A DNA stretch of 6,739 nucleotides from Escherichia coli. Lineage in GTDB: Bacteria > Pseudomonadota > Gammaproteobacteria > Enterobacterales > Enterobacteriaceae. The first letter of the stretch is position 1; each line of letters opens with the position of its first letter. Location: NCBI RefSeq assembly GCF_003334255.1, contig NZ_QOWU01000099.1; one strand, written 5' to 3'. The notes under the pieces were generated by a model, which saw only the letters and a program-made list of their open reading frames with translations, was not told where the DNA came from and did not search any database. Positions 1,274-6,739 of this stretch are shown here, piece by piece. Position numbers and translations under genes: made by a program.

Positions 1274-2758
1274 ATGTCATTCGGTCAGCCTTGTGATGAG
1301 TTTCCCCTGAGTTCGCTGCCTCCACTCATTCGTGATGCCGTTATTGAAGCTCAGCAAATTACGCAGGCTCCCCTTGGGCTTGTGGCAGCGTCTGTCCTGG
1401 GCGCTGTTTCACTTGTCTGCCAGAATCTGATTGATGTCTGCAGACTGAATACACTGCGGGGGCCGGTCTCTCTTTTTTTCCTGACGCTTGCCGAGTCCGG
1501 AGAACGAAAAACCGCAGTGGACAAATTATTAATGAAGCCCCTGTACCAGCAGGAGATGCAGTTATATTCCAGATACAAAAGTGAACTGGCTGTCTGGAAA
1601 AACAAGGAAGAGCTTTTAAAGGCTCAGAAAAAAGCATTGTTGTCAAAACTGAATAAAGAACTCCGCAAAGGCGCGGATGAGTCAGAAACCCTCAGACAAC
1701 TGGAAGTACTTCAGAAAAACAGTGCGGAAGAACCTGTGAGGTATAAATTCATTTTTAATGATGCCACGACTGCGGCAATTAAGAATCAGCTTTGTGGTAA
1801 ATGGCGTTCAGTGGGTATTATGTCAGATGAAGCCGGTATTATATTTGATGGATATACCCTGTCTGAGTTGCCTTTTATTAACAAAATGTGGGATGGCTCT
1901 GTATTGTCGGTGGACAGAAAGAATGAACCCGAACAGATGATTGAAAATGCCAGAATGACGTTATCCCTCATGGTGCAACCCGGTCTTTTTGACCGATATA
2001 TGGAGCGAAAAGGTTCTGTTGCCAGGGACAGTGGTTTTCTTGCCCGTTGTCTTATCAGTAAACCTGCAACCACGCAGGGGAAACGCTTTATTAACGGAGC
2101 TGTGATTCCGGGAGGATCATTAACGGCATTTCATGAACGATTAATGGAACTGGCCAGAGGCAGTATTGAAAAATCCAGTGAGGATGAACGGTATTGTCTG
2201 CATTTTTCGCCTGAAGCGCAAAAAATATTTATTGAGCACTATAATGTTCTGGAGCAGGATTTATCCCCTTCCGGACCCTTAAGCCCGTTTCGGGGACATG
2301 TTTCAAAAAAAACAGAAAACATTGCAAGAATTGCAGCGTTATTTCAGTATTTCAGCTATGGTGAAGGGAAAATCTCTGCCGATATCATGACGTCTGCTGT
2401 CGTAATAAGTTCGTGGTACACAGATGAATATAAAAAATTATTTGCGTTACCTGATGAATCTGAACTGCAGCAGAAGGACGCCGAGGAGCTGTTCGACTGG
2501 CTCATTGAGGAGTGCCGCGGAGAATGCCCGCCCCGTGTCAGGAAAAATTATATTCTCCAGTGTGGCCCGGGCCGGTTCAGAAACAGGAAAAAACTGAACG
2601 CATTGCTGAACATTCTTGAATCTCAGTTCAGGCTTTCTGTCGTGCCGGAAGGAAAAACCATGTATGTTCTGCTTCCCCAGATAGCCAGTTTAAAGTTGTC
2701 TGATGTCTCAGGTATTTTTACCTCGGGTTATCACTACAATAAGCTGAGAGCGAAGTAA
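1274..2758 (+). CDS. yfjI: DUF3987 / YfjI-family protein, 494 aa
   Basis: Longest ORF in the window (track 1205..2758, which begins at TTG). I place the start at ATG 1274 because GAGG at 1265-1268 sits 5 nt upstream. The N-terminus (FPLSSLPPLIRDAVIEAQQITQAPLGLVAASVLGAVSLV ... LTLAESGERKTAV) matches the pattern I recall for DUF3987/YfjI proteins, including the SGERK[ST] motif. Family call is from memory, not a search; the symbol is family-level, not a claim of orthology. Confidence 0.8.
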   Translation: MSFGQPCDEFPLSSLPPLIRDAVIEAQQITQAPLGLVAASVLGAVSLVCQNLIDVCRLNTLRGPVSLFFLTLAESGERKTAVDKLLMKPLYQQEMQLYSRYKSELAVWKNKEELLKAQKKALLSKLNKELRKGADESETLRQLEVLQKNSAEEPVRYKFIFNDATTAAIKNQLCGKWRSVGIMSDEAGIIFDGYTLSELPFINKMWDGSVLSVDRKNEPEQMIENARMTLSLMVQPGLFDRYMERKGSVARDSGFLARCLISKPATTQGKRFINGAVIPGGSLTAFHERLMELARGSIEKSSEDERYCLHFSPEAQKIFIEHYNVLEQDLSPSGPLSPFRGHVSKKTENIARIAALFQYFSYGEGKISADIMTSAVVISSWYTDEYKKLFALPDESELQQKDAEELFDWLIEECRGECPPRVRKNYILQCGPGRFRNRKKLNALLNILESQFRLSVVPEGKTMYVLLPQIASLKLSDVSGIFTSGYHYNKLRAK

Positions 2759-2817
2759 CCGGTGAGCAGTTTTTCTCCATTATGCTTCAGACTTAGATGA
2801 TTGATTATTATGGGGAT

Positions 2818-2857
2818 TTCATCACCGATATTCAGATGTATGAATATCGGTGATGAA
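2818..2857. repeat. 17-bp perfect inverted repeat with 6-bp spacer (TTCATCACCGATATTCA-GATGTA-TGAATATCGGTGATGAA)
   Basis: 2818-2834 is the exact reverse complement of 2841-2857; the spacer is 2835-2840. It lies between the convergent 3' ends of the yfjI-like gene (stop 2758) and the 197-aa gene (stop 3096). The stem is AT-rich and no T-tract follows on either strand, so it is not a classic intrinsic terminator. Confidence 0.9.
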
Positions 2858-3095
2858 CTAAAGCTCAGGAGCTGCGTGGTGGTGATGAATCAACAGGCAT
2901 ATAACTGATACCCGCCGGTCAGAAGTTCCAGCCTGCGACTTTCCTGTCTGCGTGCCCGCAGTCCGGCGTTCAGGTGCAGCGTGTGACAGAACGCACGGAG
3001 AGCGAAACGGCAGGCAGACAGGCCGTTCAGTCAGCCCTGGCACCCTGCCCGGATACCAGCTTCCCTGAAACAACTGGCATCAGGTGCGCTTATCG

Positions 3096-3689
3096 TCAAC
3101 CGTTGTGCGGTATGCCAGGAGCAACGTACTGATCCATCAGATCCGTCAGTGCTGCGCTCTGCTTCTGACGGTTGATGATCCATTCCTCCAGCTCTTTTTC
3201 TGATTTCCGTTTCAGATTCTCCGTCCAGTCGTCAAGGCAGTTTCCGGTCATTAAATCAAGCCAGCAAAGCCAGACCAGTTTGAGGCGCAACTCCGTGCCA
3301 CCAAACTGACGGAAGAGGCTAATCAGTTTATTTGCCAGAGAACGCTGCCTCAGACGTTCACATTCAGACAGGAGAATGCCTTCCAGCATCGGATGATGAA
3401 CCAGCAGATGTTCACTGGTGCATAAATTCACGATCAGATCATCATCCAGGGGCGGCGTGGCCCGTTTGTCAGGGCCATAAATCAGCCGGTGCAGGCTCTG
3501 GGGTACGATGGCAATCTCCGGTTTTTCACCATTGAATGACACCCACCCGGGCGTCAGATTATGGAAGTAGTAGATATTCGGATGACACACGCCCCAGGAT
3601 ACGGCGTGCCGGGTGAAGCCGGTCAGCCATTTCTGGTAGCTTTCGTGGAGCAGCTCGTAACGGGTCTGATACTGTGGTTTCATTTTCAT
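3096..3689 (-). CDS. hypothetical protein, 197 aa, unknown function, immediately downstream of alpA
   Basis: Track ORF 3096..3830 (-). The first 47 codons are low-complexity and overlap the alpA 3' end, so I trim to the internal MKMKPQYQ start. GAGGA (reverse complement of 3692-3696) lies 2-3 nt before ATG 3689 and 8-9 nt before ATG 3683, so 3683 is an equally plausible start. The body is protein-like, but I recognise no family or catalytic motif. Confidence 0.7.
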   Translation of the reverse strand: MKMKPQYQTRYELLHESYQKWLTGFTRHAVSWGVCHPNIYYFHNLTPGWVSFNGEKPEIAIVPQSLHRLIYGPDKRATPPLDDDLIVNLCTSEHLLVHHPMLEGILLSECERLRQRSLANKLISLFRQFGGTELRLKLVWLCWLDLMTGNCLDDWTENLKRKSEKELEEWIINRQKQSAALTDLMDQYVAPGIPHNG

Positions 3690-3710
3690 ATTCCTCACGG
3701 GGGATAACAG

Positions 3711-3752
3711 GCAGCAGAACGCCGCCGGCAGGCCGGAGACTGCGTCTGCTGC
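3711..3752 (-). promoter_or_regulatory. GC-rich intergenic hairpin between alpA and the downstream 197-aa gene
   Basis: GCAGCAGA at 3711-3718 pairs with TCTGCTGC at 3745-3752; the stem can extend to about 11 bp with one bulge, and the loop holds a CCGGC/GCCGG sub-palindrome. No U-tract follows on the minus strand, so read-through into the 197-aa gene is likely. Confidence 0.35.
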
Positions 3753-3769
3753 AGATGAACGGTTAAGAA

Positions 3770-3976
3770 TTACGGACGGGACTGTGCAATACGCGCCTGC
3801 AGCCAGGCTTCCACTTCGCTTTTCAGCCATCGGGAGCTGCGGCCCAGCTTGATGGGCGCAGGAAAGTCACCATCCTTGATGAGTTTGTAAAACCACTTAT
3901 CGGTCAGGCCGGTCAGTTGAGTGATAAATGCCATGTCGACCATCTGGTCATCCATCAGTGAAACTGGGGTGATCAT
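3770..3976 (-). CDS. alpA: AlpA-family phage-type transcriptional regulator (excisionase-like DNA-binding protein), 68 aa
   Basis: Track ORF 3770..4048 (-), trimmed to the internal ATG at 3976, which is preceded by GGAGG (reverse complement of 3986-3990) with a 9-nt spacer. The sequence FITQLTGLTDKWFYKLIKDGDFPAPIKLGRSSRWLKSEVEAWLQARI matches the AlpA family pattern (TGL...W.Y.LI..G.FP.PIKLG.R...W...EVE.WL) and the size is typical. Confidence 0.8.
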   Translation of the reverse strand: MITPVSLMDDQMVDMAFITQLTGLTDKWFYKLIKDGDFPAPIKLGRSSRWLKSEVEAWLQARIAQSRP

Positions 3977-4102
3977 GAGAATGTTCCTCCGGATGTTGTT
4001 AAACCAGCCGGTGTGGTCATGAAAACAACGCACCACCTTCACCGGCATAACAACCGGGGAGAAACGTAAAAAATAATCGGGAATGTGACCGCCAGGAGAT
4101 AA

Positions 4103-4120
4103 ACGGGGAGGTTACGGTGG
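4103..4120 (+). repeat. direct repeat copy 1: ACGGGGAGGTTACGGTGG
   Basis: 17 of 18 positions identical to copy 2 at 4248-4265. Flanks show weaker similarity (AGCCGTACC versus AGCCCGTGCC), giving about 35 bp of imperfect repeat. Each copy can form a GGTTACGG / CCGT(A/G)CC stem. Located 130-290 bp upstream of the alpA start, on the promoter side. Confidence 0.8.
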
Positions 4121-4247
4121 CTGAGCCGTACCGGTATGCCGGGTGGTTGTTACGAAACGATGCTTCCGCACGCGCGCGCTATAAAGAAGGGATGATTTTC
4201 GTGAGGAAGAGGGGAAAACTGGCGTTCTGATAATTGCAGAGTTATTT

Positions 4248-4265
4248 ACGGGGCGGTTACGGTGG
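4248..4265 (+). repeat. direct repeat copy 2: ACGGGGCGGTTACGGTGG
   Basis: Second copy of the 18-bp element, 145 bp from copy 1, with a single mismatch (A/C at position 7). Confidence 0.8.
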
Positions 4266-5196
4266 GGCAGCCCGTGCCTTGTGGGCAGGGACAGGTATCA
4301 CTGGTGGGATAAGGCTGTCTGATTGGTATTATAAATATAAGAAGTTATCAGAGAGTAACGTAAAGGATTTGCCAGAATAACCTAAGAGAGTAAATCTCTC
4401 CGGTAACAGAGCGCTGTGAAGCATTCTGTATCAGAGTGCAAATACATGAACGCTGATGCGTAAAATCAGCAGTGACACGCCAGCTCCCCCTGTGCCCATT
4501 CCTGTATAAGACATGAACTGAGCGTATTAATGCTCCTGCCCTGAGACTGAGCCGGTGAGTGAGGGGCTGAGAAATCCCTCTTGACACTGCTCTAAACCAG
4601 AAATACTTCCCCGGTTGTTGCGGTGCGTCCGGATCCCCGATAACGGAACACTAAGGCTGTATTGCGGGACACCAGGTAAGTGGCAGCCCGTAATACGTCA
4701 GGAGACGCGGGAAAAGTGAATTCCCACACGCGTTATAAACTTACCCTAGCGGAGCTGGAAGCCTTTAACTCTGCCGTTGACAACCGGCTGGCAGAACTAA
4801 CCATGAACAAACTTTACGATCGCGTTCCGGCTTCTGTCCGGAAATATGTCACCTGAACGTTCGGTAATCACAGCGGTATTGCGCCAGGTGTTATCTGCTC
4901 TGTGTGATTCTTTTTAGGGTTTCTCAGATTGTTAAAAGCTGAATATGTTCCTGTTGTCGGGAACCAGGATAATACAGGGAACATTAAGCGGTATAGCGAC
5001 AACAAAGCATTCGAAATCAAAAGGGAATGGTGTACGGAGTTGTGGGCAGTAATGGGCCGATTTTCGGGCATTACCGATCTCTGTTGAGGTTTTCTCGTAT
5101 TTGCCGGGGATCCGGTGCGTTACTGTCTGGCACAGCAAACGCAGAGGTGGCGGGGCGCTCTGCTCCGCTGATTCCGGATAATCCCTCCCCTGTAAC

Positions 5197-5597: not shown

Positions 5598-6167
5598 ATG
5601 ACCTACAAATGCAACCCCTTCTGGCAGCAACGTATTCGTGAGACGGTGCTGCACGCACTGGATGTTCATCCCCGTCTGACGGCATTGCGGGTTGATCTGC
5701 GTCTCCCGGATGTACCGGCAGCAACGGACGCGGCTGTGATATCCCGCTTCATCAATGCCCTGAAAGCCCGAATCGACGCTTACCAGAAACGTAAGCATCG
5801 GGAAGATAAACGCGTGCATTCCTCGACCCTGCATTACGCCTGGGCCAGGGAGTTCGGGGAGCTTAAAGGCAAAAAACACTATCAACTGCTGCTGCTGGTC
5901 AACCGGGATACCTGGTGTCGTGCAGGCGATTACCGCGCTCCGGGGTCACTGGCCGGGATGATTAAACAGGCCTGGTGCAGTGCCCTGGGGGTGGATGCCG
6001 GATGTTATGCCACGCTGGTGCATTTTCCGGTCAGGCCGGCGGTGTGGCTGGAACGCGATGATGATGCTGGTTTACGGGATATGCTGAAGCGTGCTGACTA
6101 TCTCGCGAAAGAGTACACCAAAGTCAACGGTACCGGTGAGCGCAATTTTGGCTGTAGCCGGAGTTGA
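5598..6167 (+). CDS. YagK/YfjJ-family protein (inovirus Gp2-like), 189 aa
   Basis: ORF 5598..6167 with GGAG at 5586-5589 and an 8-nt spacer to the ATG. Motifs RVDLRLP, VISRFINALKARI, HYAWAREF, HYQLLLLVNRD, LVHFP and the C-terminal NFGCS match what I recall of E. coli YagK/YfjJ proteins. Family call is from memory, not a search. Confidence 0.75.
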   Translation: MTYKCNPFWQQRIRETVLHALDVHPRLTALRVDLRLPDVPAATDAAVISRFINALKARIDAYQKRKHREDKRVHSSTLHYAWAREFGELKGKKHYQLLLLVNRDTWCRAGDYRAPGSLAGMIKQAWCSALGVDAGCYATLVHFPVRPAVWLERDDDAGLRDMLKRADYLAKEYTKVNGTGERNFGCSRS

Positions 6168-6425
6168 ACACGACAGGCGCACCAATACCCGGCAAACCAA
6201 AAGTATGGGTTGTTGTCTGGCGGCAACGATGTATCCACTCGCCCACTGACTGTTTTTTACGTCAGTGTTCCATTGTGTGACAACCACAGTGCTGTAACAG
6301 CAACCAGCCTGCTTTACCCAAACTCCAGTCCAGATTTTAACTGAACCGCCATTCACACCTGACCACACTGCCCGTACCGGGACGGCTGTTGCCTGCGTGT
6401 CGTCTGGCGGCTGAGGAATATGACT

Positions 6426-6739
6426 ATGTACGCTAAATCCTTTCTCGCACTTGATGGCAACGGGCGTCTGACGGGTGCCCGTACCGCACAGACTGCACCT
6501 TACGATCGCTACACTTGCCACCTCTGCGGCAGTGCGCTCAGATACCACCCGCAATACGACACTGAGCGTCCCTGGTTTGAACACACTGACGACGGGCTGA
6601 CAGCGCACGGTCAGCAGTGTCCTTATGTCAGACCGGAACGCAGGGAGGTACGCTTGATTAAGCGTCTGCAGCAATTCGTACCGGATGCCTTACCCGTGGT
6701 GCGTAAAGCCAGCTGGCACTGCAGACAATGTCACCACGA
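6426..6739 (+). CDS. Zn-ribbon protein, 5' part only (truncated by window edge), CoiA-like N-terminal pattern
   Basis: Reading frame open from ATG 6426 to the window end (104 codons, no stop). GAGGA at 6413-6417 gives an 8-nt spacer to ATG 6426; the ATG at 6420 is too close to it. The translation MYAKSFLALDGNGRLTGARTAQTAPYDRYTCHLCGSALRYHP..RPWFEHTDDG...CPYV...WHCRQCHH has CxxC, WFEH and a second CxxC, resembling the CoiA-type N-terminal zinc finger (CxxC ... HFxH ... C). Resemblance is by eye. Confidence 0.6.
   Translation, partial: MYAKSFLALDGNGRLTGARTAQTAPYDRYTCHLCGSALRYHPQYDTERPWFEHTDDGLTAHGQQCPYVRPERREVRLIKRLQQFVPDALPVVRKASWHCRQCHH

Follow-up and report, generated by a model that had tools for sequence, protein, structure and literature searches.

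The DNA analysed here, called the window throughout, is a 6,739-nucleotide (6.7 kb) stretch of an Escherichia coli contig (NZ_QOWU01000099.1) that carries on its minus strand an AlpA-family regulator gene, alpA (3770-3976), and downstream of it an unassigned gene, here called X (3096-3689). A YfjI-family (DUF3987) gene (1274..2758, plus strand, RefSeq annotation) is convergent with X; its product is 52% identical to K-12 YfjI and its best phage-family match is phrog_2373 (E 1e-82), which carries the label 'DNA helicase'. Upstream of alpA and on the opposite strand lie a small Hha/YmoA-family ORF (4680-4856, plus strand), which corresponds to orf40 of the SRL pathogenicity island (SRL PAI) and is missing at the corresponding position in other genera, and an inovirus-Gp2 / YagK-YfjJ-like gene (5598..6167, plus strand), the third of the conserved set, assigned from its RefSeq name, phrog_25019 and synteny and with homologs matched by Pfam PF23343 and PF11726. 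Of two 'putative zinc ribbon' genes (DUF7828 / Zn_ribbon_11), the first (6420-6739, plus strand, from the RefSeq neighbour) runs past the window end and is counted in the same conserved gene set because such a gene lies between alpA and X in other lineages. Positions 1-1273 form a stretch of about 1.2 kb between the island GTPase gene, which is outside the window, and the YfjI gene; they hold no long ORF, the RefSeq neighbour annotates no gene there, and a search of positions 1-1204 gave no remnant of the ~337-aa backbone gene found at this place elsewhere among the genera. Within the 700-nt region upstream of alpA there is also a 25-nt direct repeat, ACGGGGAGGTTACGGTGGCTGAGCC, at 4103-4127 and 4248-4272, the second copy being 84% identical and the spacing 145 nt. 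Its core, GGTTACGGTGG, occurs among 46 loci only in the E. coli-type locus, and the repeat could be an operator or binding site.

In a genome search the window matched thousands of E. coli chromosomes over its whole length, with at least 80% of it covered in 1067 genomes and the best full-length matches 97.3% identical. In an annotated RefSeq neighbour the genes follow the order CbtA/YeeU toxin pair, RadC-like (JAB) protein, antirestriction protein, DUF932 protein, Ag43, YfjP-like GTPase, YfjI (plus strand), X (minus), AlpA-like protein (minus), Hha/YmoA-like protein (plus), small hypothetical protein (minus), inovirus-Gp2-like protein (plus) and two zinc-ribbon proteins, which is the gene order of orf39-orf47 of the Shigella flexneri SRL PAI (table in PMC6980539). 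The island is of the SRL-PAI / CP4-44 / CP4-57 kind. Its assignment to the P4 type, as in the original prediction, was not borne out, as no product in the 36.7 kb annotated about the closest E. coli match is named as a P4 capsid-redirection or polarity-suppression gene (sid, delta, psu) or as an alpha primase, and the only match to a primase PHROG is a weak one on YfjI (E 0.087).

The first cistron of the pair encodes a small helix-turn-helix protein of 68 aa. Both Pfam (Phage_AlpA PF05930, E 2.5e-9, residues 12-59; HTH_17, E 2.2e-7) and PHROGs (phrog_66, 'excisionase and transcriptional regulator') bear out its earlier reading as an AlpA-family regulator. It shares only 25% identity with the AlpA of K-12 CP4-57, of which it is a paralog, and by gene order it corresponds to orf41 (Vis/AlpA-like) of the SRL PAI. 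The known excision factor of the SRL PAI, Rox, is a separate gene, orf3, adjoining int (PMC6980539), and orf41 is therefore a second AlpA-family gene of that island.

Gene X is separated from alpA by 80 nt in the window. Counted from the first ATG, its ORF (3096-3689, minus strand, from the ORF list and ortholog alignment) encodes 197 aa. The homologous start is the second ATG at 3683 (MKPQYQ...), chosen by RefSeq and aligning with the MK of all orthologs, and gives 195 aa. A ribosome-binding site, GAGGAA (3691-3696, minus strand), lies in conserved columns of the intergenic alignment and is kept as AAGGAA in orthologous loci. The ancestral 3' end of the gene covers 3080-3124 on the minus strand, with the canonical stop at 3080-3082. 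Relative to the common E. coli allele (pairwise alignment with locus L001) the window has one extra base at 3123/3124, which causes a +1 shift 12 codons short of the normal stop and replaces the last 13 residues. The normal protein has 200 aa and ends in ...MDQYVLLAYRTTVDDKRT, as opposed to ...MDQYVAPGIPHNG in the window, the window product closing with ...QYVAPGIPHNG where ...QYVLLAYRTTVDDKRT is normal; the canonical C terminus is present in protein P0002. Either a true mutation or an error of sequencing may account for the extra base, and the copy in the window is possibly not fully functional because it is frameshifted. Of the 197-aa gene first described here, the ORF, its strand and the 80-nt gap thus stand, and its start and C terminus are revised.

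The family of X is an orphan. Zero families were matched at E <= 0.1 in Pfam, NCBIfam or PHROGs and zero of the 5027 defence-protein models of PADLOC-DB 2.0 at the same threshold, and there was no PDB sequence match; these searches used the single sequence and profiles A1 and A3. At E <= 0.001, Pfam has no match to any of 37 diverse members of the family. When 5.8 billion proteins were searched, 211 clusters were obtained, all 'hypothetical' and all from Enterobacterales. A profile run against 1.84 billion representative proteins found only 122 matches, mostly fragments, and a broader profile in a word-indexed search gave 254 clusters, with Enterobacterales as every organism name among the 120 best matches listed; both profile searches yielded family members and fragments from Enterobacterales. 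The gene is under strong purifying selection, with a median pairwise dN/dS of 0.10 among 30 orthologs, equal to that of its AlpA partner; that this is a real but unassignable protein-coding gene, as originally proposed, is thereby confirmed. Identity with YfjH, the alternative named at the outset, is rejected (hhalign probability 0.12%), as is identity with YfjI (0.1% for YfjH/YfjI). The UniProt names 'Malate transporter' and 'Secretoglobin family protein' on members of the family have no profile match and were treated as annotation errors. Two longer proteins, P0130 (319 aa) and P0279 (358 aa), join the C-terminal half of X to a phosphotriesterase-like N terminus or to a transposase; these chimeras are probably deletion or insertion products at the island and no true domain fusions.

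An AlphaFold model of X, computed from an alignment with distant paralogs added (pLDDT 88.5, pTM 0.87), predicts a long N-terminal helix, a short helix, a beta-hairpin, a less confident linker at about residues 70-90 and a six-helix C-terminal bundle. A fold search with this model gave no fold match and no toxin fold, so that the search for a family and the search for a fold, both suggested for X at the outset, each ended without a match. Sixteen positions are invariant in 37 sequences (Q17, L43, P61, L64, G102, L104, S106, E107, R110, L111, L120, L139, C140, W141, L144 and Y186), and the invariant motifs G-x-L-x-SE(C)-x-RL and LCW fall in the predicted C-terminal bundle. The pI of about 6.5 is near neutral, which is atypical of a DNA-binding protein, and neither a signal peptide nor a membrane segment is seen on reading the sequence. 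X is likely a cytoplasmic two-domain protein whose modelled fold is not recognised.

The position of X beside alpA is conserved far beyond E. coli. For this comparison 32 loci were taken from one genome per species and further loci were added by exact protein look-up. In each of the 37 loci for which upstream sequence exists, X is directly preceded by a co-oriented alpA homolog; these loci represent about 25 Enterobacterales taxa including Escherichia, Salmonella, Yersinia, Serratia, Hafnia, Photorhabdus, Pectobacterium, Providencia, Morganella and others, and contiguous alpA-X is present in 3338 E. coli genomes of the 3347 that carry X. The conservation of X beside alpA, on which the original prediction had staked its reading of the pair, is thus established. 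The gap between the two genes mostly measures 71-103 nt across loci. Among complete E. coli genomes 63% have X, the median being 2 copies and the maximum 6; the gene is absent from genuine plasmids, and among 50,697 phage records it appears in one odd 3.6-kb record. Clustering of ORFs over the loci gives a common layout with genes for a DUF932 protein, a 229-aa protein, a GTPase and a ~337-aa protein on one strand and, on the other, a Gp2-like gene directly before alpA or directly after X, X often standing between the two backbone genes AlpA and Gp2. A YfjI homolog is found in X loci of the E. coli type only. The family has at least three sub-branches, all with the same operon context: distant paralogs (23-32% identical) also lie within a Gp2-AlpA-(DUF7828 zinc ribbon)-X operon, and in distant branches 1-3 other genes separate alpA from X, as does a zinc-ribbon gene in locus L034.

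The AlpA homologs upstream of X are 66-93% identical to that of the window, while X itself spans 36%-99% across the same loci. A tight, specific AlpA-X complex is disfavoured by this lack of co-divergence. In one locus (L037, 3576-4440) an AlpA 93% identical to the window's stands beside an X of 36% identity that lacks the near-invariant Cys108 (SELHRL vs SECxRL), a sequence pattern suggesting that alpA and X lineages have been shuffled as modules. A second, diverged X (27-35% identical) is present in some islands, either in tandem or a few kb further down, the positions recorded being 8001-8576 and 11028-11579 in L010, 6273-6848 and 7001-7525 in L041, 14683-15111 in L024 and 8580-8861 in L023. 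Three loci (L019, L021 and L037) come from metagenome bins labelled Bacillota, Clostridiales and Collinsella; their island backbone is 60-90% identical to enterobacterial copies, and binning contamination rather than transfer to Gram-positive bacteria is the most likely explanation.

The gap between alpA and X contains a two-tier hairpin (3707-3755, minus strand), found by folding and by a covariance model, R1, built on a hand-annotated seed of 12 sequences. It consists of an outer stem, GCAGCAGA/TCTGCTGC, and an inner stem, CCGG-loop-CCGG, is followed by the conserved CTGCCTGT and has no U-tract; it is GC-rich and folds with -30.3 kcal/mol (z -2.2). In most loci the gap folds into this common hairpin, followed by the conserved ...CTGCTGCCTGT and the AAGGAA ribosome-binding site. 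R1 finds one match per locus, confined to the alpA-X gap and to the sense strand, detects the diverged E. coli form (29.8 bits for the copy in the window) and has no match in CP4-57, and Rfam has no family anywhere in the window, hairpin included. Pairing holds in 87% of cells once the alignment is fitted to the model, against 33-50% with the partners slid, changes on both sides affect 7 of 17 hairpin pairs (reached by 8 of 500 shuffles) and the covariation score reaches 0.222, the shuffles giving 0.133 (0 of 500 attain the observed score). The fitting biases the pair counts towards the structure, and the sequences are related. Exchanges of GC to CG, AU and UG in the inner stem are seen even in an unfitted alignment, and RNAalifold on a MAFFT alignment recovers the inner stem alone, missing the outer stem because it is out of register there. 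Many of the pairs are G-U on the sense strand, which would be A-C mismatches on the opposite strand, and a role at the RNA level in an alpA-X transcript is therefore indicated. The gap holds no T-tract and no terminator-like site, and no sigma-70-like promoter was found in 2700-4700. Owing to the missing U-tract, a processing, stability or pausing element seems more likely than a terminator. The hairpin without a U-tract that had been noted earlier is thus present and fits co-transcription; it is, however, a conserved structured element with compensatory changes and not an incidental one.

Taken together, we consider it somewhat better than an even chance that X forms the second cistron of an operon headed by alpA, belongs to the backbone of widespread Enterobacterales integrative islands and is accessory to the island life cycle. 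The islands concerned are of the kind of the Shigella SRL PAI, E. coli AGI-3, CP4-44 and CP4-57. According to this model, alpA and X would be expressed from one transcript, and the hairpin would set how much AlpA is made relative to X, either through processing or stability of the RNA or through attenuation. As an accessory protein, X could then take part with the Gp2-like initiator in the excision, replication or transfer that AlpA controls, and would act for the island's own cycle and not for the host. This part is inferred from the gene neighbourhood alone. The Gp2-like gene is of the replication-initiator type. The lack of co-divergence between AlpA and X and the near-neutral pI of X weigh against the model. 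By analogy, the presence of YfjI at the position of X in CP4-57 hints that X may cooperate with the Gp2-like initiator when the island replicates or is mobilised, but the hint is weak, as YfjI and X are both present in the window.

The gene had initially been put forward as a candidate for uncharacterised cargo, that is, as variable accessory cargo, perhaps anti-phage, that stands in the alpA operon by chance. Its function is indeed unknown and the island family does carry anti-phage genes. X, or X followed by Gp2, directly borders a variable slot in which the downstream genes differ by locus and are mostly anti-phage. The cargo, assigned in part with PADLOC, comprises DndBCDE and Dpt genes (in loci from exact protein look-up), Gabija (L007), ZacABC (L008), PDC-M27 (L015, L018), type I restriction (L032, L041), PDC-M54 (L033), Shango (L036), Hachiman (L038), Ppl (L024), LlaJI-type restriction (L042, L043) and a VgrG effector cluster (L044). 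The slot also holds an HNH protein with type I R-M and, in one locus, fimbrial genes, and further loci show interchangeable cargo after AlpA-X(-Gp2) (L002-L006, L023/L025/L026). X follows alpA in 37/37 loci and remains constant while the island cargo changes, the variable anti-phage genes beginning beyond the backbone, and X is therefore not cargo. The synteny contradicts the cargo reading, as X is present in every island examined, often stands between AlpA and Gp2 and has no match among the 5027 defence-protein models, so that we regard this reading as highly improbable. The same adjacency admits another reading, in which X is a gatekeeper, that is, a regulator or anti-termination-type factor that enables expression of the downstream defence genes once the alpA operon is on. 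X or X-Gp2 directly adjoins the slot, 15 of 20 distinct cargo types have their first gene on the strand of X, and the conserved hairpin, which lacks a U-tract, might work as a regulated pause or attenuator. We judge this reading unlikely. A yet more far-reaching proposal, which we rate as quite unlikely and offer as speculation, is that X founds a fold family of mobile defence-slot switches: made with AlpA from a structured bicistronic RNA, it would sense a phage or island-life-cycle signal and license either island replication driven by the Gp2-like protein or downstream defence expression. If this were true, X would be a general control part for very common defence-carrying islands of enterobacteria.

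AlpA-like and X might also stabilise the island as a toxin-antitoxin-like or abortive-infection pair, with a small DNA-binding antitoxin and a larger effector. This arrangement would account for the two-gene layout with the small helix-turn-helix gene first, the invariant polar residues Q17, S106, E107, R110 and Y186 of X could form an active site, and CbtA/CbeA addiction modules are already present in these islands. However, the genes are separated by a structured gap of ~70-100 nt in place of the typical short or overlapping junction, 1-3 genes intervene between alpA and X in distant branches (a zinc ribbon in L034), X has no PADLOC match and AlpA and X do not co-diverge; these points speak against a pair of this type, which we rate as unlikely. 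A further question concerns the window copy itself, which could be a decaying pseudogene with no functional gene at this site. The frameshift removes the near-invariant A190, R192 and T193 among the last 13 residues, and the databases hold many truncated X copies. However, 93% of the window's X is intact and keeps all positions that are invariant across the 37 aligned sequences, purifying selection on the family at large is strong, and most 'partial' database entries are cut by contig ends; decay of the window copy is accordingly judged rather unlikely.

The alpA-X gene pair itself is not new, because it is annotated in thousands of genomes and its second gene is listed as unassignable for the SRL PAI (PMC6980539). 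Within the literature searched, four aspects look new, namely X as an invariant backbone partner of an AlpA paralog, X as an apparent orphan fold restricted, on the model and the searches made, to Enterobacterales, the conserved structured RNA that links X to alpA, and the position of X at the flank of a rich defence slot. X is present in 63% of complete E. coli genomes and yet has no name, domain, recognisable fold or literature beyond ORF labels, and it is among only three genes fixed beside the defence-exchange slot of SRL-PAI/CP4-type islands. No mechanism can be derived for it from sequence or structure. Published surveys class many such islands as having an integrase or recombinase gene and no other known mobility genes. 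The AlpA-X-Gp2 module with its RNA element offers a handle on how these islands excise, replicate and move, and the module is a practical marker for locating Enterobacterales defence slots.

Arrangements resembling that of the X islands occur in several known systems. For instance, Pseudomonas islands integrated at tmRNA (IntY, cargo, RadC, Gp2-like, AlpA) likewise have a Gp2-like gene beside AlpA and RadC in the core; most of them carry defence systems and they are mobilised non-obviously by jumbo-phage transduction (PMC12595487). They differ in belonging to another bacterial order, and no X homolog was found outside Enterobacterales. P4-like satellites, in the part of Rousset et al. 2022 that is reported in PMC12595487, also have an AlpA/Vis-type regulator and interchangeable anti-phage systems at a fixed position between conserved genes. 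In contrast to these satellites, the X island has no product named sid, delta, psu or alpha primase, and X has no PHROG match. In CP4-57 an AlpA-family regulator likewise heads a co-oriented set, alpA-yfjI-yfjJ, with the Gp2-like YfjJ, the backbone shared after the module comprises the YfjP GTPase, DUF932, RadC-like, antirestriction and CbtA-type toxin-pair genes, and defence cargo, AbpAB and RnlAB, adjoins the module. However, CP4-57 has neither X (no tblastn match below E 1) nor the hairpin, and YfjI between alpA and yfjJ takes the place that X has in AlpA-X-Gp2 islands. The UniProt entry Q5K5T0, 'Aec62', is 100% identical to the modelled X allele. 'Aec62' is presumably an ORF label from an avian E. 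coli island (AGI-3), and nothing relevant to the function of X was found in the literature searched for Aec62, WP_000804452 and Q5K5T0. The SRL PAI shares the gene order, with a YfjJ/Gp2-like gene followed in turn by an Hha/YmoA-like gene, the Vis/AlpA-like orf41, orf42, entered as 'No similarity / hypothetical protein', further hypothetical genes, a YfjP-like GTPase gene and Ag43 (PMC6980539). Between SRL PAI orf42, Aec62 and X there is no difference, and they are the identical gene under ORF labels.
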